DNA from: a virus
Taxonomy: Duplodnaviria > Caudoviricetes
DNA length: 64,000 nt
Direction: 5' to 3' (one strand)
IMG/VR virus record: IMGVR_UViG_3300012662_000009
Span: 32,001-96,000 of that record
The notes beneath the pieces are model-generated. The model did not search any database, was not told the DNA's origin, and worked only from the letters and a program-made list of their open reading frames with translations. Positions within the stretch are counted from its first letter, which is position 1. Every line of letters starts with the position of its first letter. This document shows, in pieces, positions 3,306 to 62,830 of this stretch. A program made the position numbers and the translations under genes.

Positions 3306-3815
3306 ATGAAGTCCATAAAAGAATTTATTAATGAAAACAATAGTACTGTTATGAGGCAATTTGTAGATACTGTAAATAATGCCCGTAGGAGTAATGAAGC
3401 ACATGAATTAATAAATGTTGCTATTCAAGATATTTTAGAAATCCTTGAGAAAATGCAGAAGAAAGCCAAAGATCTGAAGGTTATTAAAAATATTTTTAAT
3501 GTAAGGATAAATGATAAAAAAGAACTTCAGAAATATCAATATTTCATGTCAACCATTTTGACATACTTACATGATAATTTGGAAAGTACTAAAGTAAATA
3601 TAAAAGATCCATGGAATAGTTTTTTAATGTACTTAAATTTCACGGTTATAGAACATATGGAAAGTTCTGAGATGAATGAAATGATAGCTTCTGCTATAAG
3701 TGATGATATTTTGGGAGAAGATGCTGATTGGGATGATTACAAAGGTATTTTTATGCAAGCTCTTATGAATCTTAACCGTCTTTGTAAAATGGTGACAGGT
3801 AAGTATTGGAAGTAA
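3306..3815 (+). CDS. Hypothetical protein, paralogue family B, with capsid-targeting-like leader
   Basis: Starts MKSIKEFINE. C-terminus LNRLCKMVTGK matches 14277..14840. Confidence 0.75.
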   Translation: MKSIKEFINENNSTVMRQFVDTVNNARRSNEAHELINVAIQDILEILEKMQKKAKDLKVIKNIFNVRINDKKELQKYQYFMSTILTYLHDNLESTKVNIKDPWNSFLMYLNFTVIEHMESSEMNEMIASAISDDILGEDADWDDYKGIFMQALMNLNRLCKMVTGKYWK

Positions 3816-3837
3816 TTTGGTCAAAAATATATCTATA

Positions 3838-3867
3838 AAAAAAGAGATCCAAAAGGATCTCTTTTTT
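3838..3867. terminator. Bidirectional intrinsic terminator
   Basis: aaaaaagagatcc-aaaa-ggatctctttttt between convergent genes. Confidence 0.8.
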
Positions 3868-3901
3868 GTTGTATGTGAATAATTTAATTATATTATATTT
3901 A

Positions 3902-4762
3902 TTAGCGGCCACGATATCCTTTCGGTTTTAATTCAGGATTTTCATCAGTTTTTGTGCCATCTAACATAGCATATTTTAAGGACATGACTCCATTATCTCC
4001 AATATCAGATACATCCCAATTTGAAAGATCACAATCAAATTTTTTACAATCACAGAACATCCTCGATACATCTTGTGCTGAAGATATGTCCCATTTAGAA
4101 ACATCTGAATTGAACTCATAACAATTCTCAAACATACCACCGAAATTCTTGACATTGCTTACATCCCATTTAGAAACATCTGAATTGAAATATTCGCAAT
4201 GAGCAAACATATGATTCATATTTGTAACTTTAGATACTTTCCATTTAGAAACATCTGAATTGAAATATTCGCAATGAGCAAACATATGATTCATATCCGT
4301 AGCTTTAGATACATCCCACTTAGAAAGATCTGAATTGAAATATTTACAGCCAATAAACATACCACTAAAATTCTTGACATTGCTTACATCCCAATTTGAA
4401 AGATCACATGCGAAATTTTCAACTCCAGCGAAGGCCTCAGACATATTTGTAACTTTAGATACATCCCACTGAGACACATCATAATTATGCATCAAATACA
4501 TCTTCGGTAGTGTTTTGAATAATTCACCAATATCTGTTATTTTCGAAGTGTCTATTGTATTCAGATTAATAGTTTCATACTTTTGTTTCCGTTTAATAAG
4601 AGAAATCGTCTTTTTATACCATTTGTTGTTTTTTGATAATTGATCGCTGGTAGTAGCTCTTACGCAATCAACTAATTCCCTGAAATTTTTTGGCTGATAT
4701 GTTTTAAGCTCGGGTTCGGGTGTATAAAGTTTTTCTGTTATATAATTATCCAAATGTTTCAT
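3902..4762 (-). CDS. BspA-like / DUF285 (PARCEL) leucine-rich repeat protein
   Basis: About seven 25-aa repeats of the form WDVSxVTNMxxMFxxCxxFNSDxS. Leader MKHLDNYITE. Confidence 0.9.
   Translation of the reverse strand: MKHLDNYITEKLYTPEPELKTYQPKNFRELVDCVRATTSDQLSKNNKWYKKTISLIKRKQKYETINLNTIDTSKITDIGELFKTLPKMYLMHNYDVSQWDVSKVTNMSEAFAGVENFACDLSNWDVSNVKNFSGMFIGCKYFNSDLSKWDVSKATDMNHMFAHCEYFNSDVSKWKVSKVTNMNHMFAHCEYFNSDVSKWDVSNVKNFGGMFENCYEFNSDVSKWDISSAQDVSRMFCDCKKFDCDLSNWDVSDIGDNGVMSLKYAMLDGTKTDENPELKPKGYRGR
4166..4296. repeat. Exact 56-bp duplication at 75-bp period inside the LRR gene
   Basis: 4166-4221 is identical to 4241-4296 (ccatttagaaacatctgaattgaaatattcgcaatgagcaaacatatgattcatat). Confidence 0.9.
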
Positions 4763-5373
4763 AATATCACAATTTTATTATTCACTCGTCCTACGATCTT
4801 TCCATTAGCACTCTTCCAATTATTGCCAAGAACATATAAAGATTCGTTAAGTGATTTAATAGGACTATTACTTCTTAAACATTCTTTAATATGTTCTTCT
4901 CTACCATCTGTAGTAAGCTCTCTCAGAGGCTTAGGTATTTTTGATTCAGTTGTTGTATAAGCACTGGGTTCTTCATATTGACCTTCAAGTTCTTTTATAG
5001 GAACCAATACAGCTACTACATCACCATTTATATTATCTATTTTATAATCATATCCATAAAGATAAAAAAGGTCTATAGCAGAATATATTTCGATATCAGC
5101 AGCCCCTCTATAAGGATATGTATGAGACTTAAAATCAATGCCTCCCCAGTACTGACTGCATACAAAGTTATCAAATTTATCAGTCTTGACCATACTTCCA
5201 GTGATTATATATCTTCCATCAAAAAGCTTCGTCATATGAGTATCCGAAGGCATTCCAAAGATATTATTATAGAATCTCACCAAAGGGTCTTGAGTAGGAG
5301 TAACAGGAGCAGTATTAGTATACTCAAATTTGGCTACTCCAGATTTTATTAATTCAGAAAATTTATCTCTCAT
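4759..5373 (-). CDS. Hypothetical protein
   Basis: 204-aa ORF in a tightly packed minus-strand run, with an ATGA overlap to the next gene. Confidence 0.7.
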   Translation of the reverse strand: MRDKFSELIKSGVAKFEYTNTAPVTPTQDPLVRFYNNIFGMPSDTHMTKLFDGRYIITGSMVKTDKFDNFVCSQYWGGIDFKSHTYPYRGAADIEIYSAIDLFYLYGYDYKIDNINGDVVAVLVPIKELEGQYEEPSAYTTTESKIPKPLRELTTDGREEHIKECLRSNSPIKSLNESLYVLGNNWKSANGKIVGRVNNKIVIL

Positions 5374-5381
5374 ATATAAAA

Positions 5382-5621
5382 TTATTTCGAAAAAGAGACA
5401 TTAAACATACCGATGAGTTGCCCCCATTTATTATCTTTTACAAGTTTACTATTAGTTTTTAAGAAACCATCAATAGTATTTTTCATACGGTCTTCATCAA
5501 GTTTATCACCAAAGACAGTCTCAAATTTCTTTTTAGCTACTTCGCGAAAATCATCTTCATTCTTAATGGTTTCTTCTGCTTCATTGAGCTGTTCATTTAT
5601 AAAATCAATTAAGTCTATCAT
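5382..5621 (-). CDS. Small hypothetical protein with capsid-targeting-like leader
   Basis: 79 aa, starts MIDLIDFINEQLNE, packed between neighbours. Confidence 0.7.
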   Translation of the reverse strand: MIDLIDFINEQLNEAEETIKNEDDFREVAKKKFETVFGDKLDEDRMKNTIDGFLKTNSKLVKDNKWGQLIGMFNVSFSK

Positions 5622-5626
5622 ATTTC

Positions 5627-7009
5627 TTATTTATATTTCTTATAATAATTTTGTAGGTCCGACATATAATTAAGTAAATCTACATCAGTTTTCTTTTTCA
5701 TGTTCTCAGTCGGATATAAATTACTTAAAAATAGAATAATCAAATTCTTATTCTTCTTAAAGTTATTATCCAGGTATTCAAAGTCTCCTTTTAATATATC
5801 TATTAAAATCTTTTTATCTTTTTGATCAGGAATCATACTAAAAGTATCTCTCATAGCCTGATTAAAGACTGTTTTATAATTCCATTTAGTCAATTCCTCT
5901 AAAAGAATATACATGTCATCATTTATAAGGGTCTCAAAAATTTCTTCTTTAGTATAACCTAACATTTCTATCATCAGGGATTCTGTATACATATCTTGAA
6001 TATCTTGCAATATCTCCGAGGCCTTTCTGTCATTCTTGAGGAATTTTATCATCTTATTTATAATAGAATTTCTAATATTGCCCTCCGACATACCCATAGA
6101 TTTTGCTATATCCTTAGACTTCTCTCTTTTATAACCATTTAAGCCGAAATATCTATAGAATATATTAACATCTCTTTGCTTAAAATTATTTTCTAAAAGT
6201 TTATATAAGGATTGCCATGACTTCTCTTCATTTCTGGTAAGATCTTTATCTTCAATACCAAGAGCAGATAATTTATCAGAATCAATCTCGTCATCACCAG
6301 ACATCATACCATCTATTGAAACAGCATCTAAAAGACCTGCGCCATAGACTTTCGAAGCATACCAATTAGTACCCGATAATGTGTGTCCATATTCATTTAT
6401 ATCATTGAGTATCTGCTGTTTAACCCTAAATCCGGCATAAGTCTTAAAAGCAACTCTCTGACCTTCATCATCAGTTTTTCTCCAGTCATTCATGGCATCA
6501 GTAAACCCCTTGAGAGCTGCTGACATAAGTTCTTGTTTATCAAGTTTAGATTTACCTACGTAAGCATTTACTATTTTATATACCATAGGCATATACATCT
6601 TAGCAGCCGCAGATCTACCCACTTGACTATCAAGGTCTATAGTAAGGTCATCCATAGAAAGTTTACCTAATTCTATAGATTGTCTTTCTTGTTCAGTTTG
6701 ATATTGCGGGAGGAGCTTAATCTTATTTTTAAGGTCTTTAAGCATATTCCAAAGATCTTCTAATGAATCTTCGGATATATTATATTTTTTCGCGAGGTTT
6801 TTAAGCCCTCCTTTATTGGAATTTTTAATTTCTTCTATAGAAGCAATATCTAAGAGATTATATTTCTGAGTAAGATATATAACCCTCTTAACATTTTCAG
6901 GAATAACTCTATTGACCTTACTAAGATATTGATTAATCTCAGAAGATAATAAAGACCCCGAATTATAATTTTTTCTGGCTTCTAAAACGAAACTACTAAA
7001 ATTATCCAT
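5627..7009 (-). CDS. Sigma-70 family RNA polymerase sigma factor with N- and C-terminal extensions
   Basis: Region 2-like MVYKIVNAY...ELMSAALKGF...AFKTYAGFRVKQQI. Region 4 HTH IFYRYFGLNG...SKDIAKSMGMSEGNIRN. Confidence 0.8.
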   Translation of the reverse strand: MDNFSSFVLEARKNYNSGSLLSSEINQYLSKVNRVIPENVKRVIYLTQKYNLLDIASIEEIKNSNKGGLKNLAKKYNISEDSLEDLWNMLKDLKNKIKLLPQYQTEQERQSIELGKLSMDDLTIDLDSQVGRSAAAKMYMPMVYKIVNAYVGKSKLDKQELMSAALKGFTDAMNDWRKTDDEGQRVAFKTYAGFRVKQQILNDINEYGHTLSGTNWYASKVYGAGLLDAVSIDGMMSGDDEIDSDKLSALGIEDKDLTRNEEKSWQSLYKLLENNFKQRDVNIFYRYFGLNGYKREKSKDIAKSMGMSEGNIRNSIINKMIKFLKNDRKASEILQDIQDMYTESLMIEMLGYTKEEIFETLINDDMYILLEELTKWNYKTVFNQAMRDTFSMIPDQKDKKILIDILKGDFEYLDNNFKKNKNLIILFLSNLYPTENMKKKTDVDLLNYMSDLQNYYKKYK

Positions 7010-7063
7010 TCTTTTAAGTATTTTCTTTTGATTATAATAACACCAAAAATATAGAGATTAAAG

Positions 7064-7525
7064 ATGGTAATATTTAATTTTTTCAAATACTTATATATAC
7101 ATCTCAAATATTATAACATTATCAAAAAAGTATATAAAGAAGAATCCTTTATAGATAAGCTATCCCAGATGTTTAATATAAAATTTAAGAAGGATTGGAT
7201 AGGTCGTTTATACGCTGTTATAAATCCCAATATAAGCACTCCTCTCGGTGATCAAGTATTTGAATATAATGAAAAAGGATTGGATAATAAGACTTATATA
7301 GAAAAATGGGTTATGGATAGGATGAATGTATTAAATGAATTTATTCAATCTAATAATCTTTTTGATGTTCTTACATATAATATAAAGAAATTGGATGATT
7401 ATGATAATTATTTATTTATAATACAACCTATTACATTAGATGATTGTCTTAAATGGACTAAAAGATTCTTTATATTATTATTTGCGCTGGTATTAATTTT
7501 TGGAATAATTTCAATATTTATATAG
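7064..7525 (+). CDS. Hypothetical membrane protein
   Basis: 153 aa with a C-terminal hydrophobic helix (FFILLFALVLIFGIISIFI). Confidence 0.7.
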   Translation: MVIFNFFKYLYIHLKYYNIIKKVYKEESFIDKLSQMFNIKFKKDWIGRLYAVINPNISTPLGDQVFEYNEKGLDNKTYIEKWVMDRMNVLNEFIQSNNLFDVLTYNIKKLDDYDNYLFIIQPITLDDCLKWTKRFFILLFALVLIFGIISIFI

Positions 7526-7542
7526 AAAATATTTTTAATAAT

Positions 7543-8121
7543 ATGACAAGACAAGATTTAAAAGGAAAGAGTTATGATGAAATGCAAGCGATGCTCGAAG
7601 CGGAACTTGTAGCGTTTAGTGAAGAAATTTCAAATCCCGAATTGACTGAAGAAGATTTGCTTGCTAAGGAACAGGAAGTTATTAAGGAACTGAATGATTA
7701 TGACAATTATCTTAATAACGTAACTTATGAACTTCCAAAGGAACATGTTTTTGGTGATAAAAATGACCAGGAGAAATATACTCGTAATGATATTGCTAAA
7801 AAGATTATTTACTTCTTCTCAAAGATGGAAGTGGAATTCCAGTATACACTTGGAATGTATCAACTTGTAAATCTCTGGAAGGGTAATATAGAAAAGATCA
7901 ATTACAAGGCTTATGATAGTACTTTGCGATGCTTGGGTGGTCTGAAATTTAAAGGTTATAATGAATGGAAGGATATCCTGGCAGTGCATGATTATCTCTC
8001 TGAATGTCACGATGCTTATAAAATGGACCTTGCATGGTATATTTATTTAAGTACTAAGCACAATGCTATTCTAGATATCATGAAGAAACCTGAACCTGCT
8101 CCTGAAATGCCTGAAGCTTAA
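7543..8121 (+). CDS. Hypothetical protein (acidic, helical)
   Basis: 192-aa ORF followed by a terminator. Confidence 0.75.
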   Translation: MTRQDLKGKSYDEMQAMLEAELVAFSEEISNPELTEEDLLAKEQEVIKELNDYDNYLNNVTYELPKEHVFGDKNDQEKYTRNDIAKKIIYFFSKMEVEFQYTLGMYQLVNLWKGNIEKINYKAYDSTLRCLGGLKFKGYNEWKDILAVHDYLSECHDAYKMDLAWYIYLSTKHNAILDIMKKPEPAPEMPEA

Positions 8122-8139
8122 AAGTAAAGCTTGTAAGAT

Positions 8140-8172
8140 AAAAAAAGAGAGATCAAAGACCTCTCTTTTTTT
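8140..8172. terminator. Bidirectional intrinsic terminator
   Basis: aaaaaaagagag...ctctcttttttt between convergent genes. Confidence 0.75.
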
Positions 8173-8193
8173 GTTTATATAAGAACTTTTTTA

Positions 8194-10047
8194 TTAACCC
8201 AACAAATCTATATCACCGAATTTAGCTGCTTTGAAAACTTCACCATATTTTTTACCGAGGATTCTTAAACCTTCCATATAATTATGTTTTAAGGTATCTT
8301 CAATAGAAATATTCCATTGACTTAAGAACTTAGCATATAACTGTGTCTGTGTTTTGATAAAATCATCATAATCATCAGGACTTAAGGGAGATTTTTTGGC
8401 ATTACCTTCCTTAGCAACTCGTATCTTCTCACCCAGAGCCATAACAGTATCACGGTCATTATTCGATGTAAATACTCCCGCAAAGACTTCCTTAAATACA
8501 TCTAAGAAATATGCGCAAAGCGAAGAATTGTTCTGAGTGGTAATCCATGTACATGCGTTAGCAAATTCTTCAGTAGTAGGCAATGTATCACCATGAGCAG
8601 AACATAATAATTGTGAGAAAGGTATCTTGACTAAATCAAGATTCTTTTTATCAATCTTAAAAGACCCCTTTGTCCATATACCAGCAACAGCTGCATCAAA
8701 ATCGCCTATATTTCTAATAACCTCGAGAAATGCTATAAAAGAATCTACTGCAGAAGCAGGTACATAACTATTTAAGGTCATAGCTAAGATATCTGTGGGT
8801 ATATCAAATATTGTAAACCCCTCGAGATTACCGGTTTCTGAATACTCAGCAAGATCTCTCATGGCATTAGTCCAGGAGCGTGGCGTGCACATTAAACGGG
8901 TCGGAGCAACACTTTCCATGTCTTCATTAGGATCCATATAAAAGAACTTACCACCAGACATATTTTCTGATTCAGGCATTTCAAGCCATTTAGTAAGCAG
9001 CGGGGATATAAAGTTTTGTTTCTGGGCCCATGATGTCCAAGTTTTTACGCAAGGTTCATAATAAATATGTTTAAAGCGGTTTCCGAGAGCTGCGCCGATG
9101 TCAGACTGACCAGACATTTCGTCTTCCATACGGTTAGAAGCACATATAATAGTCCAACCAGAACCTAATTTATATCCATTGAAAATACCTTCATTTACAA
9201 GGGGAAGGACCACATTGAGTACCTGAGGAGTAGCACGAGATAACTCATCGACAAATAATAGACCTTTACCACAAGCCTTATCTAATTCAAGATCTTTGGA
9301 TGCATCACCAGTGGGTTTATATACAGGAAGCCATGTCTTAGGTACATCCATAGCTTTTTCTTGGCCATCTACTTCTACGTACTTAGGAAGTGTGAAGTTA
9401 TCAGGTGTTTCATTGGAGAGAGTCTTAACAACTAAGTTATAATCCTTAAAATCTTCATATTCATCAAGGACACTCATGAGAATAGCTGTTTTACCTATGC
9501 CAGGAGCTCCCCAGATCATAAGACGAGCTAATTTCTTATTGGTAAGAGCTAATTTAATATGCTTTTTAAGACCTTCATTATCAACTATAATATTATACTT
9601 AGCCTCAGGATCTTCTGTGTGCATCTTAACTTCGTTAATGGGTGTCTCAAAATTTTCTTCACATTCCTTAATCATTCTTTGCCAGTACTTAATAGAATTG
9701 CCAGACCCATAAAGTTTCTTAGCAGATTCAGGATTAGTACCCAGACCTACTATTTTCGAGCCTTCTTTATTCAGACATACAAGAGTACTTTCTTTGTTTA
9801 TAGCACCATCTTTATATGCTTGACCGGCAGTCAGGGGGGATATGGCATTCATAGGATCTCCTGCTTCATCTGTAGGAATGAAATATGACCCAAATTTGAC
9901 CACAATTCCTTTAAGATATGTGAAAACCTTCTTAAATTTTGCTTGGACATTTTTAAAGATATCTTTAAGCCCTTCGTTAATGTTCTCGGATTTAAGCATT
10001 TGAGAAATTGAAAGAGATTCATTAAAACATTCGGTAATATTTTTCAC
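8194..10047 (-). CDS. MoxR-like AAA+ ATPase
   Basis: Walker A GAPGIGKT, Walker B LLFVDELSRA, ICASN sensor, ALGNRF arginine finger, TPRSW. N-terminal extension of about 140 aa. Confidence 0.88.
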   Translation of the reverse strand: MKNITECFNESLSISQMLKSENINEGLKDIFKNVQAKFKKVFTYLKGIVVKFGSYFIPTDEAGDPMNAISPLTAGQAYKDGAINKESTLVCLNKEGSKIVGLGTNPESAKKLYGSGNSIKYWQRMIKECEENFETPINEVKMHTEDPEAKYNIIVDNEGLKKHIKLALTNKKLARLMIWGAPGIGKTAILMSVLDEYEDFKDYNLVVKTLSNETPDNFTLPKYVEVDGQEKAMDVPKTWLPVYKPTGDASKDLELDKACGKGLLFVDELSRATPQVLNVVLPLVNEGIFNGYKLGSGWTIICASNRMEDEMSGQSDIGAALGNRFKHIYYEPCVKTWTSWAQKQNFISPLLTKWLEMPESENMSGGKFFYMDPNEDMESVAPTRLMCTPRSWTNAMRDLAEYSETGNLEGFTIFDIPTDILAMTLNSYVPASAVDSFIAFLEVIRNIGDFDAAVAGIWTKGSFKIDKKNLDLVKIPFSQLLCSAHGDTLPTTEEFANACTWITTQNNSSLCAYFLDVFKEVFAGVFTSNNDRDTVMALGEKIRVAKEGNAKKSPLSPDDYDDFIKTQTQLYAKFLSQWNISIEDTLKHNYMEGLRILGKKYGEVFKAAKFGDIDLLG

Positions 10048-10136
10048 GTTATATAAATTTTTTTCTTTAATAATAATGCATTATAAGTATAATTCAAAAA
10101 GATATAGGTTATTTTAAGGATAAATATATAAAAAGA

Positions 10137-10685
10137 ATGACTATCATAGGCATTGACCCTTCTATTAATAGCACAGGCCTGTGTGTTAAAAAAGATAATA
10201 AAATAAAATACTATATAATACCTTCGAAGATGACAAAGAAAATGAAGGAATTTAATAATAAGTATATACAAATACTTCCTTATGAAAAATATGATATAAC
10301 AGGGCAAGAATATGTCGAAAAAGAATTTTCAAAGACCAATAATATATATAACATTTGTTTAATAATAGAATCCCTTATAAAAAAACATAAACCGGATATG
10401 ATTATTATGGAGGGTGTAGCGTATTCTTCTAATGGGTCAGTGGTTGATCTTGCGGGACTTAATTATTGTATCAGGATAACTTCTATGAAACATAACATAC
10501 CTTTTAAGATAGTTTCTCCTACTTCTGTTAAGAAATTTGCTGTGGCCAATGGACAGGCTACTAAAGATATTATTATAGACGCTTGGAAGAAATTAGATAA
10601 AAATATAAGAGATATTAGAGATATTAAAATAGATGATCTCGCGGATGCTTATTTTATAGCTAATTATCAAGACCTTGAAACATGA
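10137..10685 (+). CDS. ruvC: RuvC-like Holliday junction resolvase
   Basis: IIGIDPSINSTG, IMEG, PTSVKKFAVANGQATK, DDLADAY. Confidence 0.85.
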   Translation: MTIIGIDPSINSTGLCVKKDNKIKYYIIPSKMTKKMKEFNNKYIQILPYEKYDITGQEYVEKEFSKTNNIYNICLIIESLIKKHKPDMIIMEGVAYSSNGSVVDLAGLNYCIRITSMKHNIPFKIVSPTSVKKFAVANGQATKDIIIDAWKKLDKNIRDIRDIKIDDLADAYFIANYQDLET

Positions 10686-10722
10686 TATAAAAAGATTATT
10701 TTTTAATTAAGAAATTAATCTA

Positions 10723-11598: not shown

Positions 11599-11623
11599 TA
11601 GTGTTATTATTAAAGAAAATATT

Positions 11624-21380: not shown

Positions 21381-24300
21381 ATGTCAGAATTGACTTTAGA
21401 TCAATCATTACAAGCATATCGGGTGATGAACACACCCACAAAATACTCTTGGAAGCAGCACTGGGCCCAGGAAGTGTTTTCTGATCCCGACCTTTTTAAA
21501 TGCAGTAAAGAAGAACGCCGACAATTTTCTAAGAGATTAAAAGAATGTACTATAACAATATGTTCTAATATTAAACAAACACAAGGCATATCATGTACTT
21601 TAGAAGATTTGGTAAAGTGTATTATATTACCTTCTAATAAAGATATATTAAAATCTAATAGAAAAGTAATATATAGTACTTCTAACGGAGAACGACCTAT
21701 AGGCAAAAAAGCTTTTAGTCTTTGGAATGGGTTTCAGGTTATAGATCTTGATATTAAAGACGAAGAACTTGTTAAGAAACTTAAATCCTATATTTTTAAT
21801 AAATTATACAAATGTAATTGGTTCTTAGGTGTTACTTTATCCTCTTCTGGAAGAGGATTGCATGTTTATACAAAGATTTCTATACCAGAATCAGAACAAA
21901 ATGACGAGAAGAAAAAGAAGTTATTATATCTCACCAATTTCCGACATAAATATTCTTTTGTATATTTATCTCTGATCTCCGGCATGTCTTTATATGGATA
22001 TTCTAAAGATGATATATTAAAATGGATGGACTTATCTATGTTCAAGCCACAACAGGGAGCTTTTATAGGTTATGATTCACATCCTTTAATAAATACTCAA
22101 TTCTTCGAAGATTTTATATATGTCAATTTTGATAATGTAGAAGACATCGGTCATCCTGATATAGACTGGGTTACATATCCCGATCTTAAGGAAATCTTTA
22201 AGAGATGGGAGTGGTTTGAAGACAATGATTCTAATGAAGATATTAATATAGAAGTTATAAAAGCTGATGATTTAAAATTTGATGCGCATAATAAAGTCCA
22301 TTATAAACACTTCGAACGATGGAAATTAGCTAATACATTGGTTAAGATCTATGGTATAGAGAAAGGTTTTAAGTATTTAAGATTGATATGTTCTAATAAT
22401 ATTAAGGATAAAGAATTACAAGCGGATTGCATAACAGCAGCTCGACATAATAAACCAGTCAATGCATGGGCTGTTAATAGGTTAAATGCTCATCATGGAT
22501 TTCAAATTAAACTTAATATACAAGATAGTGTTGTTGATGAATCCGAGATATTAAATTCTATGGATAAGATAGATAATCCCAATCTTATCAAGGAATCAAA
22601 ATATCTCAAGATATTTAATATAACCAAAGATGAATATTTAGGACATATAAGACACGACCTTATAAAGTCTTGTGGTAGGATTACTCTTATAGAAGCTGGT
22701 GCTGGTGTTGGCAAGACAGAAATGATCAAACAATTGGTTAAAGATGGTAAAAAAATTATGATGGTAATGCCTTTTACCAGTACCATTAAGTCTAAAGTAG
22801 AATCTGATAAAAACTGGGAATATAGCTACGGTAATAAACTCCCTAAATTAGATATCCTAGGAGGGCTTGCCCTGACTATAGATAAATTTTCTCATCTGAA
22901 TCTTATGGATGTTAAGACCCACGGATTTGATTATATAATTATTGATGAATCTCATTTGCTATTTCAATCGGAATATCGACCCGTCATGGCTAAAGTTGTA
23001 GAAATGATTAGAAATACTGAAGTACCTATAATACTCATGTCGGGTACTCCGTCGGGTGAAATAGTTTTCTTTCCTGAGATAGTTCATCTTAAGGTTATTA
23101 AAGAAGATATCCGTAAAAAAGAATTTAAGGTTAATCTTGTCGATTCTCCATCAGACCTTATGTTTATAATGTGTAAGAATATGGCAAAGGATCTAATGAA
23201 TGGCAAAAGAATCCTATTCCCAACTAATAAAGGAACTCTTTATAGTAAACAAATCAGGGCGGCAGTGACTTATTTCCTTCAAAATGATTGGGCCAACTTC
23301 GAAGAGGTCCGCTTAAAGTATTATAAAAAATCTAATTTGGGTGAAGCTTTTATGGATGATGTCAATTTTGAAAAAACTATCAAAGACACTCAGATTCTTA
23401 TGTGCACGAATTATTTAAGTGTTGGAGTAGATATCTTAGATAGATTTAATTTTTCTATATATTTCATTGATAATATCCTAGCGCAAGAACTTGAGCAATT
23501 TTCTAATAGGTTGCGTTCAAATGACCTATATATAAATTTTTACGCCTCTAAAAATGATGCAGAGGGAAATTCAAAGAATCTCCATAAATGCAAAGAAATG
23601 AATTTTAAACTCAATGATGAGGAGATTAAAAACGTTCATTCAATACTTCGTTTATGTAATGCTATGATCGAAAGAAATCCTATAGAATATAAATATAATT
23701 CCCTTATAGCATCTATTATAAACAACAATAAATTCATTGAATATAATGAGATTGAAAATAAATACTATCTCAATGAGATAGCTTATAAACTTATATACTT
23801 TGAAAGGAAATATCGCGAATATGCACAACAATTACCTGTTATCATGAAAGGCATGATGGCATATGGTTATAACATATCATCTCAAGACCTTGGAAGCATT
23901 CAAGTAGAAGGCATAGAAAACTTTAAGGATCTCAAGAATATGGTTAAACTGGCTTATGACGAACAATTACAACTCAATACAAACCATATAGAAGAACTTA
24001 TATCTCTTATCACAGAAGATCGTTTAGGATTATATAAAGAAGTCCTTAGAGGGTCTTTTGAAATTAAGAAAGGTGATGTTTGGAAAGAAGATATTACAAA
24101 ACATCAGATGATAGTAAAGAACATAGAAGTCTTTGAAAAGGTTGTACCTATATTTATTTCTATGTCTAAACAATATGCTATAAAAGATATTAGGGAGATC
24201 TTTGATTTTTGCAGAAATAAAAATAACACCTTTAACTTTGCAGCAATCAATCGTATAAAGATGCTTATAAATATTCTTTATAATGACAAAAATAAGCGAT

Positions 24301-54353: not shown

Positions 54354-54389
54354 TGGAAGAATAGAAAGAATTTTAGAAGAATGATGAGG

Positions 54390-54488: not shown

Positions 54489-54617
54489 ATGAGTATTTTT
54501 GATGATAATATTTTAGACAGGGTTCCAGAAGAAATGATTTGGAATTGGCTTGAAAATACACAAAATATTTCTTTTTATATTCAAGATGAAGAAGTTAAAA
54601 TAAAGTATCTTAATTAA
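54489..54617 (+). pseudogene. Truncated family A remnant (42 aa)
   Basis: MSIFDDNILDRVPEEMIWNWLEN...; shares a 44-bp exact upstream/start sequence with the 38467 gene. Confidence 0.65.
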
Positions 54618-54645
54618 TTATTATATAAATATCAAAAAAAATTCA

Positions 54646-55152: not shown

Positions 55153-55178
55153 TAATATAAATTATATTATATATAAAC

Positions 55179-55208
55179 AAAAAAGAGATGCATATGCATC
55201 TCTTTTTT
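55179..55208. terminator. Perfect 30-bp palindrome, terminator
   Basis: aaaaaagagatgcat|atgcatctctttttt. Confidence 0.75.
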
Positions 55209-55271
55209 TTTTATTATAGGTACTTAAACGATATTTATAAACCTTATTATTATATAATAAAAAGTTATATA

Positions 55272-58200
55272 ATGGCCAGTGTTACAGATTGCTTAGTGCA
55301 ATTACAACAACTCACAAGACAAAATCTCGATATACTCCAAGCTATTAATGACGCTTTCCTTTCTAATCAGACACACTTAACTGCTAAGATAGGAGATGTT
55401 AAATATGCTATACCGTCTTTTCTGTCCTTAGAAAATAAAATCAATAACCTCCAAGATAATTTCAATAACCTTATAAATGCACCCAAGACGGGTGAAGCGA
55501 CTTTTAATCTTGATGGAAATTCTCGTTCGATCGAAGTGCGAGGTTATACACATGCTCCTAATAGAGTTGTATTAAGTGAAGTTAATGAATTTGGGATAGA
55601 ACAAAATGATATATTCAAAGACTTCTTAACACCTGTGCCTTATATAACATTCTCGCTCAAGGATTTACCTAATGACATTACATCAGTAAATATTAAGAAG
55701 ATAATCCCTAAAACTGACGAGCTCGAAGCCTTTTTCGTGGGATTAATAGATAAGAATACTGCTTCTAAATCATATTCGTATGCGGATTTATATAAAAAAC
55801 TTTATATATATGAAGAAGATAAAGATTATATTGAATATGATACCGTCAAGAAACTTCCTATAAGAAAAAATATAGGATCATCAACATATGTCATAGGTTC
55901 TATTAAATCAGATAATATAGACGAAAATCTTGATGAATATATAACTCTCCAGTTACGGAGCGATTTGAATATAGAAAATGATCCCAATTACACCAATAAA
56001 TTGACTTATAGACTCTTTGATGAGACTATAGAAAAACCTTTAAAAATAGGGGATCAATTAGTAACCTTTGATGACTCCGCCAAAGTTGAGATAACGGAAA
56101 TCCAACAGAATACTAATACTATCACTGTTAAAGTCCTCAGTGGTGAATATCTCAATCTCATGGAAGATTCTACTAATATGGACGTTTATAATATCTCGGA
56201 TCTCGCCAAACTAAAATTTTATTCCCCTATAGATTTTGATAATGATAAATATATAAGAGTTCCACTGGAAGAAGACCAGTATGTATTTATAGCCATAGCA
56301 CCTCTCAATGATAGAATGAATATTCAAGCTCCATGGGGTACTGGTGTAGTTCTGAATACATATAACTTAATGAATAATGATCAAAATTTTAAAGATTATT
56401 ATCAAAAAAACGTTCGTAATATAGGCGATGCATTAAATGAACTTGTAATGGTCTCACCCGGAGAACTCACTAAATTATCTGGTGAGGACTTTCAAAATCT
56501 ACAAAGCATCAAACCAAGTATTGATACAGATCTTTTAAAGGTGGTCCAGATCAATAAACATCTTAATGATACTGCCACTGTTAAGAATATCAAATCTTTA
56601 TATGCGCAGAAATTAAAATATAATGCCGATCTACAAGATATTCAGAATAAGATAGCTGATATAAACAGCAAATTATCATCAGTGTCTTTTGATGATACTT
56701 CGAACATCAAAACGGTTTATACTCAACAACTCGCCGAATATACCAAAACAAAAAATTCTTTGGTAACATCCCTGCAAAAGATCGTGGATGAGATATCACT
56801 TGCAGCAAATTCTTCTGATATTCCTATAGAAAATGCTAAGTATCATATCAGAGGGTTCTTTGATTATAAATCTTTCGCTGAAATAAATAATATAGATGAA
56901 AGCCATATAAAGGGTATACAGGTTCAGTACCGTTATAAGAATATGGATAAAGCTGTTGGTAATGCAACTACCATAGCAGACAAATTCTTGTTCTCTGACT
57001 GGACTGAAATGAAAGGTTTTATGAATACCAAAGAAGTATCCTGGGACAATGGTTATCAATTTAATGTTAAGGAAGATACTTCTAATCAAAATGAACCTTC
57101 TTTTAATCAAATAGATATTGCTATATCTCAGGGAGAAACCGTTGACATTCGCTTGAAGGTTATATATGATTATGGTTATCCTTATGCAGAGGTAACGACA
57201 CAATGGTCAGAAGCGGTCAATATAGAATTTCCTCAGGAATTTCTCAAGGATGTTCAAGTGCTTGATATAATTTCAGAGAATAATTCTGATATCGAAACAA
57301 ATAGATTCAATAATATTCTTGTAGAACAAGGTATCACAGAACATATTGGAGATAAAATACAGGATCAAGATGTAACTTATTATCATAAACCAGAAAACAT
57401 CTCTTCAGGATTTTATACTTCTGAGAGACGAGTTATTCCCTTAAAAGACAAGCTCGCAGAATTTTCAAATCTCCTGTCACAACTTAAAGATGAAGTGCTC
57501 GGTACTAATTCATCTGCACTGTCAGTTTCTGTGGGTGTAGGTGATATCTCTAATAAAATATATCCTTTACAATCTAATAACATTCTCGTAGAAGGTTATG
57601 CTGATTTGGTTAAGGATAACGGTACAAAAAATACTACTATAAATAATTATACTATAGATGAAAATCAAGTTATAAGCACTCTCTTGAATATATCTATTAC
57701 TAATAATTCAGAACATACTATGAAACTTTATCCCATGTTCCCTGGTAGTTCTAATGAGATTATTAATAATAAGCCAAACTTTAAATACAATGCTGCAGAG
57801 TATACTCTGGGTGCTTTTGTGTCTTCCGGTGATATTGCCCAGCAATTTAGTGAGTTACAAGAATTTATAAATAATCTTAGAGATAAAAATAATCAAGAAC
57901 ATGATAAGTTCAAACAAGATATAACAAGTTTATACGATTTAATCCGAACAGAAGGTATAAAATTTGATGCAGAATTTGTTAAGACCCAGGCCTTAGGTAT
58001 TAAAAATATTATATATAATGTATCTACAAAAGATAGAACATTAACCACTGAAAGAATAGGTGATACTATTTATGCCGATTTTTGGACTGAAAATAAAGTC
58101 CCTGCTCAAAATATTAGTGCAGATGATCTAAAAAAGGTAAACAACATTTGTAAAGGGTTTATGAGTGAAGTTGAATTCCACTTCCAGTTATCCCGTGATA

Positions 58201-59249
58201 TATCATCCAATGACATTGTTATTTCCAAATATAAAATAATAGGAATTAAGTATTACCCTTATATTGTAACAAAGGAAAATGGAAATATAACGGATGGTAA
58301 AAAATTGTTCAATGATCCTATAGAGATAAGTGGTCTTAATATAGAATTTTCCTCTGGTGGCGCCGGTGAGTTTAATATAGATGACAACAACATATCTATA
58401 ATAGATTTCAAACCTCTATATTATTTGGATAACTCAAAGTTTAATGTGAAACCGGCGGATATTGCTATTGGTTATGATAAATCACGCATTTATTATTTAA
58501 AATCTCCTAATGAAGGTATAACTTTTACAATAGAAGAAAAATCAACTGATGAGAATAATAGGGCAAACACCACCTCTACAAGTATTCCAGTAACCTTAAG
58601 TAATACTAATGATTCTACAAATAATTCCAATATAACAACCCCAGTTATATTCCCCAGTGGAAATGAAACACTTGATAGTAAGGGTGTTTGGATGAGAATA
58701 GGTGAATCTGGTTATATACTTCAGAGATGTAATCAATTTATGAATTTTAGAACAAGTAGTATTATAGGTACAACTAAATATTATACTAAAAATCCTACTA
58801 ATGATACATATCAAGAAAATAATGAATTAGCTGGAGCATTAAACAGATATATAGATCTTGATAAAGAAAATTTTGGTGTTACTTTATACCCCAGCATATC
58901 TAATGAAAAGTCCCTTATATGTAATAATATAGGTACCATATCATATCAATTATTAAATCCTGGTGATACTATAGTAATTCCAATATTGTTAAAGTATAAA
59001 AATGGTCAATGGGTAACTAAAAAAGTTAACGGGAAAGATGAGACAATATTTGAAAGTAAGTTAAAAGATGATAAATTACAAATATCCAAAACAATATCTT
59101 TTGACCTCTTACCATCTCTTTATCAAGATCCTATAAATTATGAATTTACTGTCATATGTAAAAATAAATTAACAGATCAAGATAGGGCTTTGATGAATAA
59201 TAGAAAGTACACGGAAGATATTAAGTATACTACAACAGTTACTAAATAA
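55272..59249 (+). CDS. Large virion structural protein (baseplate/tail region)
   Basis: About 1325 aa, upstream of gp15-like and gp5-like genes; central coiled coil. ATG 55272 lies after the terminator. Confidence 0.55.
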   Translation: MASVTDCLVQLQQLTRQNLDILQAINDAFLSNQTHLTAKIGDVKYAIPSFLSLENKINNLQDNFNNLINAPKTGEATFNLDGNSRSIEVRGYTHAPNRVVLSEVNEFGIEQNDIFKDFLTPVPYITFSLKDLPNDITSVNIKKIIPKTDELEAFFVGLIDKNTASKSYSYADLYKKLYIYEEDKDYIEYDTVKKLPIRKNIGSSTYVIGSIKSDNIDENLDEYITLQLRSDLNIENDPNYTNKLTYRLFDETIEKPLKIGDQLVTFDDSAKVEITEIQQNTNTITVKVLSGEYLNLMEDSTNMDVYNISDLAKLKFYSPIDFDNDKYIRVPLEEDQYVFIAIAPLNDRMNIQAPWGTGVVLNTYNLMNNDQNFKDYYQKNVRNIGDALNELVMVSPGELTKLSGEDFQNLQSIKPSIDTDLLKVVQINKHLNDTATVKNIKSLYAQKLKYNADLQDIQNKIADINSKLSSVSFDDTSNIKTVYTQQLAEYTKTKNSLVTSLQKIVDEISLAANSSDIPIENAKYHIRGFFDYKSFAEINNIDESHIKGIQVQYRYKNMDKAVGNATTIADKFLFSDWTEMKGFMNTKEVSWDNGYQFNVKEDTSNQNEPSFNQIDIAISQGETVDIRLKVIYDYGYPYAEVTTQWSEAVNIEFPQEFLKDVQVLDIISENNSDIETNRFNNILVEQGITEHIGDKIQDQDVTYYHKPENISSGFYTSERRVIPLKDKLAEFSNLLSQLKDEVLGTNSSALSVSVGVGDISNKIYPLQSNNILVEGYADLVKDNGTKNTTINNYTIDENQVISTLLNISITNNSEHTMKLYPMFPGSSNEIINNKPNFKYNAAEYTLGAFVSSGDIAQQFSELQEFINNLRDKNNQEHDKFKQDITSLYDLIRTEGIKFDAEFVKTQALGIKNIIYNVSTKDRTLTTERIGDTIYADFWTENKVPAQNISADDLKKVNNICKGFMSEVEFHFQLSRDISSNDIVISKYKIIGIKYYPYIVTKENGNITDGKKLFNDPIEISGLNIEFSSGGAGEFNIDDNNISIIDFKPLYYLDNSKFNVKPADIAIGYDKSRIYYLKSPNEGITFTIEEKSTDENNRANTTSTSIPVTLSNTNDSTNNSNITTPVIFPSGNETLDSKGVWMRIGESGYILQRCNQFMNFRTSSIIGTTKYYTKNPTNDTYQENNELAGALNRYIDLDKENFGVTLYPSISNEKSLICNNIGTISYQLLNPGDTIVIPILLKYKNGQWVTKKVNGKDETIFESKLKDDKLQISKTISFDLLPSLYQDPINYEFTVICKNKLTDQDRALMNNRKYTEDIKYTTTVTK

Positions 59250-59258
59250 TATTTTATA

Positions 59259-60029
59259 ATGATAGATTCGAAAACACTGGCAATGAAGATTCGAAAGGGA
59301 GAGATCGACTGCAATAATCAGGATCTCTTCTTTTCAATCCTCATAAAAGGCCTCATAAATAAACTTGATGATGATATTTCTATAAGGGATATTAAGGTAC
59401 CTCATATGATTCTTCATACCGGAGATGAACAAATGTACCTTAATGTCAAAGGACAGGACAATTCTATAGAGCCTTATGAAGTATCTAATGAAGATTATGT
59501 TTATAATATTATCCCCAGGTGCATAGTAAGTCCCTCTAATGTTGATTTAATACCTGATCAAGTAACTAATCCATATTCAAGGGGTCTTTTACAATATGAA
59601 TCAGAAGATTCTATATATACCCTCTCAGCTGAATTTCGTAGGATGCCTGTTAAATTAACTTCTGAATTAAAATATTATATAGGTTCTTATACAGATATGC
59701 TTGAATTAATTCAACAAATAATTTCTAAATTATCTTTTATAAGAACTTATAACATAACTTATATGGGGCAAGTTATAAAATGTTCTTATAGAATACCTGA
59801 TAATTTTTCTGGAGAACATTTAGTTGATATAGATGAAACCACTCAAGATAACAGGTGTCGAGTCCTTACATTATCTTTAGAAGTCGAGTCTAATTTCCCC
59901 GTTTTTTCAAATAAAACTATCATATCAACGGATCAGATTATTAGAAAAATCAGTAGTAATATTAATATACATGAAACAGGAGATATTGATAAATCTCCCA
60001 TAGATTCAAATAATGATATTATATCATGA
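59259..60029 (+). CDS. Tail terminator / sheath stabiliser, T4 gp15-like
   Basis: IIPRCIV, MPVKLTSELKYYI..YTDMLELIQQII, LSLEVESNFP. Confidence 0.55.
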   Translation: MIDSKTLAMKIRKGEIDCNNQDLFFSILIKGLINKLDDDISIRDIKVPHMILHTGDEQMYLNVKGQDNSIEPYEVSNEDYVYNIIPRCIVSPSNVDLIPDQVTNPYSRGLLQYESEDSIYTLSAEFRRMPVKLTSELKYYIGSYTDMLELIQQIISKLSFIRTYNITYMGQVIKCSYRIPDNFSGEHLVDIDETTQDNRCRVLTLSLEVESNFPVFSNKTIISTDQIIRKISSNINIHETGDIDKSPIDSNNDIIS

Positions 60030-60700
60030 AATTCGCCAACGCCATATTACGACCAGGAATAGTAGAAGAAGTACTTATAGACGGGCAGATTAAAGCTTCT
60101 GCACCAGGGCTTTTTTCTGCTGAGGATTTGGATAATCTCCCTCCGATATATCCCTTCTTCGGAGGCCATGCAAATACTTATTCAGAACCCACTGTGGGGG
60201 ATGAAGTATGGGTTCTTAATGTACTTGATAATAATAGGCAATTGTATTGGTTTCGCAAGGATAATATACAAGAAGCCAATGGTGGTCTTATACAAGAAGG
60301 TGATGTGGAAGTTTTATGTAACCGGGAATTCGGGGGGGGCCTATGGGCTACTATATATTTCTCTGATGGATCTGGTTGGGTTATTAAAAGAGATGACAGT
60401 AAAATTCAAATAGATCCCGATGGAAATATTATATTGGATACAGGATTTCCTTATAGATGTATAGATGTAAATCTTTCAGGTATTTCATTAGGCTCTCGAG
60501 GAGAATCATCACACCCAGCTGCTTATGGAGATAAAATTGAAGATACTTTATTATATATTTATACGGCCCTCGAAGCAATTCAATTAGCTGCTGATACAAA
60601 TCCTTATACAAAAGGCATTTCAATGGCTCTACAAGCACAATTGCCTAAAATAGAGCAAACAATACCTCAAATAAGTTCTCCTAATGTAACTTTAGAATGA
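60026..60700 (+). CDS. Baseplate hub/spike protein (gp5/gpV OB-fold-like)
   Basis: GIVEEV...GQIKA...PTVGDEVWVL, followed by short beta repeats and AYGDK. Confidence 0.6.
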   Translation: MKFANAILRPGIVEEVLIDGQIKASAPGLFSAEDLDNLPPIYPFFGGHANTYSEPTVGDEVWVLNVLDNNRQLYWFRKDNIQEANGGLIQEGDVEVLCNREFGGGLWATIYFSDGSGWVIKRDDSKIQIDPDGNIILDTGFPYRCIDVNLSGISLGSRGESSHPAAYGDKIEDTLLYIYTALEAIQLAADTNPYTKGISMALQAQLPKIEQTIPQISSPNVTLE

Positions 60701-60942
60701 TGATTATAAATACTTCTGGAACTCGATATAAGAGATATAAAGGTCTTGAAAAGACAGGAGAGCAAGCCTATGACTATGAAAAAAATGGCTTGCTCAATAA
60801 ACTTATGTCACATACTATTATAGAATCTAATAATGAAATTCTTAAAAGTATCTTATCTTTCTTTGAGAAATCTATGATATTCCTTATGAAATATACAAAA
60901 GAACTGCAAAATTTCAAAAATATACATTATAAAAATAGATGA
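60697..60942 (+). CDS. Hypothetical protein
   Basis: 81 aa with ATGA overlaps on both sides. Confidence 0.65.
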   Translation: MMIINTSGTRYKRYKGLEKTGEQAYDYEKNGLLNKLMSHTIIESNNEILKSILSFFEKSMIFLMKYTKELQNFKNIHYKNR

Positions 60943-61335
60943 ATCCACTGAATAAATATATATCTGAAGGGTTATTTGATGACGAAGATGATTTACTGGA
61001 TAAGAAACCTTCCGCAGCATCTCTTAATTGGTTCTTAGATGAGAATAATGTTATATTCCCTGATGAAAATTCCGAGAATTTAAATATAAATAATACAGGA
61101 GAATTAATCGTTAAAAGGCCCCCGCACAGGTCTTATAATCACGAATCTCCTCAATCCTATACCTGATTGGGTTGATACAAATAAAAACAATTGGGATGAA
61201 TTTGTATGGTTTAATATCATGTATCCTGTTAAATCTCAAAAAGATCTTCCTGTGGTAGGCAATATACAATACTTAAGTGGTTTTGCGCCAAGGTTCGCAC
61301 TGGAGAATGCGCAAATTCCTTACGAATTAAGATAG
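60939..61335 (+). pseudogene. Frameshifted, truncated family A member
   Basis: MNPLNKYISEGLFDDEDDLLDK...; homology continues in the +1 frame after aaaaggccccc (~61113-61123) as NPIPDWV...VKSQKDL up to TAG at 61335. Confidence 0.7.
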
Positions 61336-61339
61336 ACAT

Positions 61340-61384
61340 ATGAAAGATATAAAAGATATAAAAGATATGAAAGATATAAAAGAT
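61340..61384 (+). repeat. 5 x 9-bp tandem repeat (atRaaagat) encoding MKDIKDIKDMKDIKD
   Basis: Read directly from the sequence. Confidence 0.85.
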
Positions 61385-62116
61385 TTTTTATTTGAAAGAA
61401 ATTATATAGGTGATTTACCCTTTACTTTTGAAGATCTATGTGATTTTATAAGAAATATTTGGGATGATGAATCGGAATCTTATATAAAAATGCAACAGTG
61501 TATAACGGATAATTACGGTGAAAGAGCCTGGTCTGGATTTCATGGATGGATCGAAAGCAAATCTAACATAGATCCGATGTCTTTATATATTAAACTTCAA
61601 AAATTCCCTGCAGATAGACTACCCAGGATTTTAGGATCTGGTTCTTATGGATCTGTATTTACTATAGGAAATGATAAAATTATAAAATGGTTTAATCTAC
61701 CTCCTGAAAAAAATGATATAATATTTTATAAATATTGTTTGAATAATAAATCGAAGTATTTCCCTAAAATATATAAATACAATGATAAATATTGTATTAT
61801 GGAGAAATTAAAAGATAATACTCAAAAATGTAAATTATATTCGAAGACCATTAATAAATATTTTAAGATCAACGGTAAAAATACTTCTATATGGGATATT
61901 GTAAATCAAATCATGAAAGGAGAAAAAATCACAAAAAAGGATCAAATAGAAATTGACAAATATATAAAAAATTTATCCAGTGATGATAAAGTAATATATG
62001 AATGGTTTTATAATGCTATGCAAGAAGCCCAGGATAATGGGTTTATAGCAGTGGATATGAAATCTTCTAATATAGGCGAAAGATCCGACGGTGATATTGT
62101 GTGGTTTGATATATAA
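61340..62116 (+). CDS. Protein kinase-like protein
   Basis: LGSGSYGSVF glycine loop, IIKW, IMEKL, VDMKSSNIG, WFDI. Confidence 0.75.
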   Translation: MKDIKDIKDMKDIKDFLFERNYIGDLPFTFEDLCDFIRNIWDDESESYIKMQQCITDNYGERAWSGFHGWIESKSNIDPMSLYIKLQKFPADRLPRILGSGSYGSVFTIGNDKIIKWFNLPPEKNDIIFYKYCLNNKSKYFPKIYKYNDKYCIMEKLKDNTQKCKLYSKTINKYFKINGKNTSIWDIVNQIMKGEKITKKDQIEIDKYIKNLSSDDKVIYEWFYNAMQEAQDNGFIAVDMKSSNIGERSDGDIVWFDI

Positions 62117-62132
62117 AAATAGAATAAATTCA

Positions 62133-62224
62133 TAGATGTGATTTAACAAAGAGAAATAGGCTCGATATAGATTTATATATCCGAGCCTATTTTGATCGAA
62201 ATTTGATATATTTATGCGCGTTGT
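62133..62224. repeat. Dispersed hairpin element, copy 4
   Basis: Core at 62164-62181. Confidence 0.9.
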
Positions 62225-62287
62225 AAGACTATGTTTTGATTGTTAAATTGCGTTATGCAAATATACAATCAAGATATTATTATATAT

Positions 62288-62830
62288 CTATGTTTTGATT
62301 GTTATAACATCTATTCCAAATACTTTTTCAAGAGCCTTAGCCGATTCGAGGTTTTTTTCGCTGTCATCAAAGAATATGAATGTAGTATATCCTCTATGAT
62401 ATAATATAGATATTACTTCAGATTTCCTTTGATTAACCGTACCGGAAAGACCCAGTTTAGGATCATCTGTGGCAAATATAAGATTTTTGTCAAGATCTAT
62501 ATTATGTTTCTTGAGAAATTTCTTAATACCACTACATGAATTCCTGGCGGTGAGGATACCTATTTGTGATCCTTTTTTATATTCCCTTTTAAGTGTATCT
62601 AAATATTTTGTGGGAATTTCTTTTTCAAGCCATTTATAATCAGAAAATTCAGTGAAGTCAAAGGATTCGCCTGGTTTTAGATTGTAATTATTAAATTTTT
62701 TATTAGATATTCTTTTAGTTATTATACCATCCTTTATAATGCCTATACGAGCTGTGGTGTGGACAAGTGTATCATCCACATCAAATAAAAGTATCCTACC
62801 GTTATTTCTATACTCACTAAAGGTTTTCAT
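62288..62830 (-). CDS. HAD-superfamily phosphatase
   Basis: LLFDVDDTL, ILTAR, RK, FFDDSEKNL. Confidence 0.8.
   Translation of the reverse strand: MKTFSEYRNNGRILLFDVDDTLVHTTARIGIIKDGIITKRISNKKFNNYNLKPGESFDFTEFSDYKWLEKEIPTKYLDTLKREYKKGSQIGILTARNSCSGIKKFLKKHNIDLDKNLIFATDDPKLGLSGTVNQRKSEVISILYHRGYTTFIFFDDSEKNLESAKALEKVFGIDVITIKT

Follow-up and report, generated by a model that had tools for sequence, protein, structure and literature searches.

The stretch analysed here (the window) is 64,000 nucleotides (nt) long and covers bases 32001-96000 of a 158,646-bp IMG/VR phage record that we call G000; coordinates prefixed w are window positions, and those prefixed g or G000 are positions in the whole record. 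Many predicted proteins of this phage begin with a leader that follows the overall pattern M-K-x-[IL]-x-x-[YF]-[IL]-x-E, and an earlier note on the window had proposed that this leader is a capsid-targeting sequence (CTS) like the one carried by the internal proteins (IPs) of phage T4.

G000 is assigned here to the T4 superfamily. Its portal, tail tube, sheath, large terminase and DNA polymerase are recognised by PHROGs, and it encodes a gp23-type major capsid protein (MCP) and a gp21-family prohead protease (Table 1). The closest cultured relatives of its MCP, at 36-38% identity, are those of the Tenacibaculum phages PTm1 and pT24, the Sphingomonas phage PAU and the Prevotella Lak megaphages. 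The genome has a GC content of 31%, almost no Shine-Dalgarno (SD) sites and, with our own open reading frame (ORF) caller, 169-171 genes at a coding density of 93.5%. As a comparison set, we used the complete sequences of four uncultured relatives whose MCPs share about 70% identity with that of G000 (G001-G004; 131-240 kb, 37-41% GC).

Enrichment and conservation of the leader

All the N-termini that the earlier note had picked out were recovered from the sequence at their coordinates. When a T4-derived expression ([FY][ILV]xE ending at residue 9-11) was used, 15 G000 proteins matched, compared to 0.87 expected from the internal frequency of the motif, and 2000 shuffles of residues 2-14 of every protein gave a mean of 0.75 matches and a maximum of 6, showing that the leader is commoner than K/I/N/E-rich N-termini alone would make it. 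A position weight matrix (PWM) built from G000 N-termini gave scores of at least 8 to 22 N-termini, compared to 0.09 expected. With one representative per paralogue family, 8 leader matches were left for 0.53 expected, so that the enrichment is real after correction for paralogy. Allowing for three mis-called starts, about 25 of the roughly 170 G000 genes (about 15%) bear the leader, 14-15 of them within the window, and the mature tagged products add up to 744 kDa at one copy each.

The description of the tagged proteins as unrelated had to be narrowed. BLAST comparisons of the leader-stripped bodies brought together 15 genes as family A and two (w3306 and w14277) as family B, next to about eleven other tagged singletons; five of the window genes at issue thus belong to family A and two to family B, and about nine independent families remain in the window. 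The reported absence of the leader from replication, QueC and fibre genes was borne out. Two partial matches stayed ambiguous: the MKTFSEY start of a HAD-type phosphatase lacks the Glu site, and the first codon of the MKSYKDF start of a RimK-type protein, at w17682, is GTG.

The same matrix was applied to T4 (N-termini from NC_000866), where it found 3 matches among all ATG ORFs of the first 150 kb (IPII, IPIII and gp61.1 only) as compared to 24 in G000, in agreement with the claim that this phage uses the tag far more widely than T4. On this matrix, made from G000 alone, T4 IPII and IPIII (MKTYQEFIAE/A; here and below a slash marks the cut) score 10.6, a range in which scores of at least 10 are reached by just 9 of 44,169 internal positions, and the 19-residue leader of T4 IPI (MKTFKEF...ITE/A) scores 5.7. 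The conserved positions of the G000 leader are 4, 7, 8 and 10; in T4 IPIII, residues 4 and 7 serve targeting and residues 8 and 10 serve processing (PMC9026906 section 2.6).

Each of the four relatives encodes 10-19 tagged proteins, and the 91 tagged proteins of the five genomes fall into 57 BLAST clusters. The codons at the conserved leader positions vary freely, with the Ile or Leu at position 4 written by seven different codons, and the DNA upstream is not conserved. Since the leader is kept at 37-41% GC, with varied codons and without conserved upstream DNA, it behaves as a signal at the peptide level. In PTm1 (29.7% GC), 2 matrix matches and 2 regular-expression matches (1.5 expected) were found, and in PAU (31% GC) neither the matrix nor the regular expression (1.2 expected) found any, which is the noise level in both cases. 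An artefact of composition or of translation starts was rejected on the strength of these two genomes, of the varying codons and of the shuffles that never exceeded 6 in 2000 rounds, and a repeat at the DNA level was rejected because neither upstream DNA nor codons are conserved. An exact degenerate DNA pattern for MKxIKEYINE matched only 5 IMG/VR contigs, one of them G004, suggesting that this particular spelling is rare in IMG/VR.

The tag is also portable, being gained or lost inside orthologue groups exactly at the Glu boundary. For example, the G000_112374 protein begins with MSGLSGHM, and its G003 orthologue begins with MKTLSQYIIE/GGASGHM. Forms with and without the tag also exist for an NDK-like protein (named from its VIKPGF N-terminal motif alone) and for a MATCAP-like protein. 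A MATCAP-family (PF08014) carboxypeptidase-like protein (G000 147872-149017, + strand) and the RimK-type ATP-grasp protein of the window (w16042-17682, - strand) are both conserved in the clade with leader-like N-termini, and they may form a pair that ligates and removes amino acids.

Cut motif, scaffold candidate and upstream elements

The residue that follows Glu10 is Ser, Gly or Ala in 56-100% of the leaders, compared to a background of 16-18%, and is often followed by [LI]-F. Products starting at residue 11 would yield the predicted peptides SLFDSEDDLLDK (w15800) and GLFDNEDDLLDK (w24726), and the uncut tryptic form would be EYINESLFDSEDDLLDK. To see which whole proteins are rich in such sites, we counted [ILVMFY]xE[SGA]. 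In T4, the gp22 scaffold, gp21 and gp67 rank top, and all three are known gp21 substrates. In the five clade genomes, the protease ranks first or second (11-14 sites, 2.2-2.9 expected) and the other top protein is each time a conserved one of 413-436 amino acids (aa; 9-13 sites, 2.0-2.5 expected). The G000 copy of this second protein (G000 157124-158365) had no PHROG match; sharing the top ranks with the protease and being preceded by TTATTAT, it is likely a gp22-type scaffold. The same cut motif thus marks the protease, the scaffold candidate and the MCP propeptide, in which the sites I-x-E (residue 16) and [VM]-[YF]-E/[GA] (residue 40, the predicted cut) are kept across the five genomes. The N-terminus of the G000 protease itself reads ...LIYE-9, and T4 gp21 carries LIE-9 (PMC9026906).

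Two family A members (w21302 and w30050) have an Asp instead of a Glu at position 10, and both carry a second V-x-E 16-17 residues further on, directly before the conserved G/R-L-[FL] block. Asp10 in the IPIII leader stops processing and not targeting (PMC9026906), and the arrangement of these two paralogues, with a distal V-x-E, is the layout of T4 IPI.

The motif TTATTAT[AT] lies 13-38 nt upstream of the start codons of 35 genes, compared to 7.3 expected. In G000, TTATTAT is found at this distance before the portal, protease, tube, sheath and MCP genes (38 nt before w50086 for the latter); in the relatives it stands up to about 50 nt before the MCP, protease and scaffold-candidate genes, and it is kept ahead of the head genes in all four. 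It is absent before the DNA polymerase, SbcC-like, RuvC-like and probable ribonucleotide-reductase genes (the last two named from the N-terminus alone). When only genes with their own upstream spacer of 25 nt or more are counted, TTATTAT precedes, over the five genomes, 22 of 29 tagged genes and 137 of 525 others (odds ratio 8.9, p = 8e-8), and 8 of 11 tagged genes and 22 of 84 others in G000 alone (p = 0.004); several further tagged genes lie inside TTATTAT-led operons. TTATTAT is a candidate late promoter of the clade. A second element, motif E (TTGTTATATCAATACATAAC, 20 bp), occurs in about 12 copies, 17-90 nt before small, early-looking genes of unknown function, and also precedes a short sigma gene and the two leaderless family A genes of the window. 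Its candidate role is that of an early promoter or operator. We infer the late and early labels of both groups of genes from gene content only.

Tagged families and their neighbours

Table 1. Tagged, related and capsid-associated features in the window and in the rest of G000. A slash marks the predicted cut; family, function and promoter assignments are predictions.
Feature	Position	Strand	N-terminus	Evidence and context
Family B, 169 aa	w3306..3815	+	MKSIKEFINE	No Pfam match
DUF285 (BspA-type leucine-rich repeats), 286 aa	w3902..4762	-	MKHLDNYITE	PF03382 E 2.7e-62; PWM 18.3
79-aa protein	w5382..5621	-	MIDLIDFINE	Leader in G001, G002 and G004 orthologues; TTATTAT 27 nt upstream
Long sigma-70 paralogue, 460 aa	w5627..7009	-	MDNFSSFVLE	TTATTAT 31 nt upstream
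AAA_5/MoxR-type ATPase, 617 aa	w8194..10047	-	MKNITECFNE (GTG start)	PF07728; phrog_1297 E 1e-31; TTATTAT 29 nt upstream
108-aa protein, not in the earlier list	w11947..12273	+	MIDLDACLKE (borderline)	PWM 10.7; orthologues without clear leader
Family B, 187 aa	w14277..14840	+	MKNLKNSILE	
Family A	w15084..15800	-	MKNIKEYINE/SLFDSEDDLLDK	BLAST
RimK-type ATP-grasp	w16042..17682	-	VKSYKDFGSVE/E (partial; GTG start)	PF08443; ambiguous
58-aa protein, Lys-rich tail	w20230..20406	-	MKTFKQYLE (9 residues)	Orthologues in G001 and G002
Family A, Asp10	w20403..21302	-	MKSIKEYIND	Second site V-T-E 16 residues on, before LLGSEDD; TTATTAT 30 nt upstream
Family A	w24726..25496	+	MKSIKEYIIE/GLFDNEDDLLDK	TTATTAT 24 nt upstream
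Family A, Asp10	w29277..30050	-	MKPIKEYIND	Second site V-R-E before GLFDSEDD
Leaderless family A	w38467..39114	+	M-SIFDD (predicted mature N-terminus)	Motif E upstream, not TTATTAT
gp23-type major capsid protein	w50086..51804	+		Pfam PF07068 E 9e-26
Leaderless family A, fragment	w54489..54617	+	M-SIFDD	Motif E upstream
168-aa protein	w54646..55152	+	MKNLKNSILE	Leader of w14277, no BLAST similarity of the body; TTATTAT 28 nt upstream
Family A, N-terminal fragment, 75 aa	w60939..61166	+	MNPLNKYISE/GLFDDEDDLLDK	
Kinase-like, 249 aa	w61367..62116	+	MKDIKDFLFE	GxGxxG..K, D-x-K-x-x-N, FD; leader in G001 and G002 orthologues
HAD-type phosphatase	w62288..62830	-	MKTFSEY (leader-like, no Glu10)	Orthologues begin MKSLSSYLKL; no canonical cut site
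Motif E, copy	w38431-38450	+		Some 9 others lie at G000 100-155 kb
Motif E, copy	w54453-54472	+		
Motif E, copy	w63360-63379	-		
gp21-family S77 prohead protease, long C-terminal extension	G000 22789-24222	-		PF03420 36.6 bits (cut-off 27); phrog_207 E 9.5e-39
Scaffold candidate, 413 aa	G000 157124-158365	+		10 sites, 2.0 expected; TTATTAT upstream; orthologues in G001-G004

Twelve of the 15 family A genes are tagged and three are leaderless, and the family is represented in the window by w15800, w21302, w24726, w30050, w60939, w38467 and w54489. The three leaderless genes begin with M-S[IL]F, exactly where the predicted cleavage product of the tagged members would start. The first 48 coding nucleotides of w15800 are identical to those of g16708 and near-identical to those of g98347. 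An AlphaFold2 model of the w24726 protein reached a predicted local distance difference test (pLDDT) score of 82.9, with residues 1-13 below 50, so that the leader is modelled with low confidence and is probably flexible. The top VIA-align matches of this model were nearly all leucine-rich repeat (LRR) proteins, at Z scores of 5-6.5 only; Foldseek returned nothing for it at E <= 0.001, and Pfam returned nothing for family A. The family A profile found no match in G001-G004 and 21 unnamed clusters among 5.8 billion proteins, indicating that the family is lineage-specific.

The sigma identity of the w7009 protein was upheld: a profile of the long and short paralogues matches region 2 of SigA/FliA/RpoD (E 1.6e-11), the long sequence on its own matches RpoS region 3/4 at E 0.005, and the short paralogue matches phrog_351 (E 4e-13). 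The long form has an N-terminal extension of about 130 aa and a C-terminal one of about 120 aa. A short, untagged sigma (211-223 aa) is present in each phage of the clade. The long one (about 460 aa) carries the tag in G000 and G004 and a degenerate version of it in G002; G001 has a 341-aa copy without leader at the end of its contig, and no copy was detectable in G003. The leader of the AAA_5 ATPase (w10047) is retained in the G004 orthologue, and the GTG start of the RimK-type gene at w17682 is supported by its G003 orthologue, which begins with MKGYNDFNSVEE.

The kinase label of w61367 comes from its motifs, which are conserved among four homologues; searches of Pfam, PHROGs and the PDB gave no match. 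Just two homologues were found in the databases, and the AlphaFold2 model is poor (pLDDT 63). Its start was placed at an internal ATG of the ORF that opens at 61340, because an 86%-identical homologue (P0026) starts there. Just before this leader, at w61340-61366, lies an in-frame MKDIKDIKD repeat of variable length, with one more MKD unit in a near-identical database copy.

The 58-aa protein w20406 carries, after its leader, a near copy of the mature N-arm of the MCP (DGGI..T.GMGNPM.P). T4 gp61.1 (54 aa, MKTFKEFIKE/..., NC_000866 18966-19130, - strand) has the same layout, and presumably echoes the mature N-arm of gp23 with its TSGAV motif. Proteins of the w20406/gp61.1 type may represent an ancient, conserved microprotein of the capsid interior.

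Around the MCP gene, the fibre-gene block upstream of it (w40225-44139) had no nucleotide match in the phage collection, its relatives being found at the protein level only. Two islands of 38% GC (w40001-44000 and w48001-52000) stand out in the 30-31% GC genome and coincide with the fibre-like genes and with the MCP gene. At least five large paralogous genes for HNH-type homing endonucleases (phrog_3339) were also found (w52027-54141 on the + strand, and G000 13838, 26299, 28696 and 142949), adjoining core genes for the MCP, portal, tail tube and terminase.

Interpretation and comparison with known systems

The leader is probably a T4-type CTS that is used at about eight times the scale of T4, on about 25 of 170 proteins. 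The capsid-targeting interpretation of the earlier note is supported by the head machinery that G000 encodes, by the position-by-position match with T4, by the portability of the tag, by the cut motif and by the upstream motif. The hydrophobic residues 4 and 7 would bind the assembling prohead core, and the S77 prohead protease would cut at [IL]8-x-E10 followed by a small residue, so that the mature protein would be freed inside the head. A TTATTAT-type promoter would drive the tagged genes along with those of the head and tail, and the mature products would be packed in the head and delivered with the DNA into the host. The cargo would then include 12 tagged LRR-like copies, the DUF285 LRR protein, the long sigma-70 paralogue, the AAA+ ATPase and the kinase-like protein, together with numerous small proteins of unknown function. 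We infer all these steps, namely core binding, cleavage after Glu10, late expression, presence in the virion and ejection.

Several points weigh against this proposal. The case rests on sequence comparison and the phage is uncultured. About half of the tagged genes of the window are paralogues, one family supplying part of the count, and the N-termini scored by the PWM were also its training set, a circularity mitigated by the T4-derived expression and by the T4, PTm1 and PAU controls. The timing of TTATTAT is deduced solely from the genes behind it. Several cargo proteins are large, at 52-68 kDa, and in contrast to the T4 IPs they are not basic, so that ejection through the tail is an assumption. 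Finally, the tag is missing from PTm1 and PAU, whose MCPs are the closest among cultured phages; this leaves an ancient origin with frequent loss, or convergence with T4.

Many of the tagged proteins, especially family A and the products of protease-adjacent genes, may instead belong to the prohead core or scaffold and be degraded or structural like gp67 and gp68, an explanation that we hold to be unlikely. In its favour, the protease gene is immediately preceded by g24280 (family A) and g24996, at some 11 kb from the portal gene, which is on the other strand, and gene 21 of T4 is likewise preceded by genes 67 and 68; moreover, no enzymatic signature was found in family A, and the mature proteins are not basic. 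However, twelve hypervariable and dispersed copies would suit cargo in an arms race better than a conserved scaffold, family A is not rich in internal cut sites as the protease and the g157124 protein are, and the leaderless copies, which have another element upstream, point to a role outside the head as well.

That the leader addresses some machinery other than the prohead, such as a modifying enzyme of the kind acting on ribosomally synthesised and post-translationally modified peptides, a degradation or membrane-targeting system or a chaperone, seems considerably less probable still. One probable radical-SAM gene at 105293 would fit such an enzyme; from its N-terminus alone it may be QueE, and it may belong to a deazaguanine pathway, given the QueC of the earlier note (w34618). 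There is no partner enzyme whose occurrence follows that of the tag. The tag has neither the hydrophobic stretch nor the Cys of export signals, whereas it matches the T4 CTS position by position and ends in the motif shared by the protease, the scaffold candidate and the MCP. As for a functionless N-terminus, shared through descent, gene conversion, recombination or an A/T-rich start bias in the absence of SD sites, the fifteen genes of one family, the three copies whose first 45 nt or so are nearly the same in DNA and the 31% GC genome almost devoid of SD sites would be in its favour, but it is made highly improbable by the 57 BLAST-unrelated clusters, the persistence at 37-41% GC, the lack of the tag in PTm1 and PAU, the maximum of 6 in the composition-preserving shuffles and its absence from the most highly expressed structural genes.

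Beyond the capsid-targeting reading itself, a wider proposal can be made tentatively, and we regard it as rather doubtful: a rumen/gut-type clade of T4-like phages may use the CTS as an all-purpose address for loading a prepared takeover kit, in which the tagged sigma, packaged late and injected along with the DNA, would direct the host RNA polymerase to early phage promoters (motif E being a candidate) and in which a dozen hypervariable LRR-like binders, the ATPase and the kinase-like protein would hit host defences before phage expression starts. To our knowledge, no virion-delivered sigma factor is known in the literature. If the leader is indeed a CTS, the injected proteome of an uncultured phage could be read from sequence, and it would be much larger and more enzyme-rich than that of T4; recognition of the CTS by the core would predate the split of distant branches of the T4 superfamily or would have arisen twice; and the packaged sigma, the ATPase, the kinase-like protein and the LRR binders would be candidates for host takeover in the first minute of infection. 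The roughly 90 leader variants would also make a natural panel for engineering protein delivery with T4-type capsids.

In T4, the CTS is carried by IPII/IPIII and by IPI and is cut by gp21 (Mullaney and Black 1996, as reviewed in PMC9026906 and PMC3012670). The G000 leader resembles it in its ten residues, with Lys2, hydrophobic residues 4 and 7, Ile or Leu at position 8, Glu10 and a small residue after the cut, and also in being found on otherwise unrelated proteins of a phage that encodes a gp21-family protease and a gp23-family MCP. It differs in scale, with about 25 tagged proteins (15% of genes) where the matrix finds 3 over the first 150 kb of T4, in the frequent extended E/[SG][LI]F after the cut site, and in the nature of the putative cargo, which includes large enzymes and regulators known from sequence alone, whereas the T4 IPs are small, basic and DNA-associated. 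In our literature search, only the IPs of T-even phages and the long propeptides of phiKZ-like phages were found described, and no expansion of this kind.

Relatives of the T-even phages carry polymorphic sets of internal proteins that share only a CTS (PMC3012670 ref. 23; PMC9026906 ref. 69). The tagged proteins of the clade are like these sets in combining a conserved CTS-like leader with diverse, fast-evolving cargo that differs between related phages. T-even sets consist of a few small proteins from one hyperplastic locus in close relatives of T4. The tagged genes of G000 are, in contrast, dispersed over the whole genome of a phage whose MCP is only remotely gp23-like. Processed head or ejection proteins are also known from phiKZ, 201phi2-1 and SPN3US (PMC5694885, PMC10052503). 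These giant phages have many head-internal proteins, including a virion RNA polymerase, that are packaged and cut after Glu by a gp21-related protease, as would be the case in G000. Their propeptides are mostly longer than 100 residues, have no common short tag and end in the motif [AS]-x-E, whereas the proteins described here share a uniform, 10-residue, T4-like tag.

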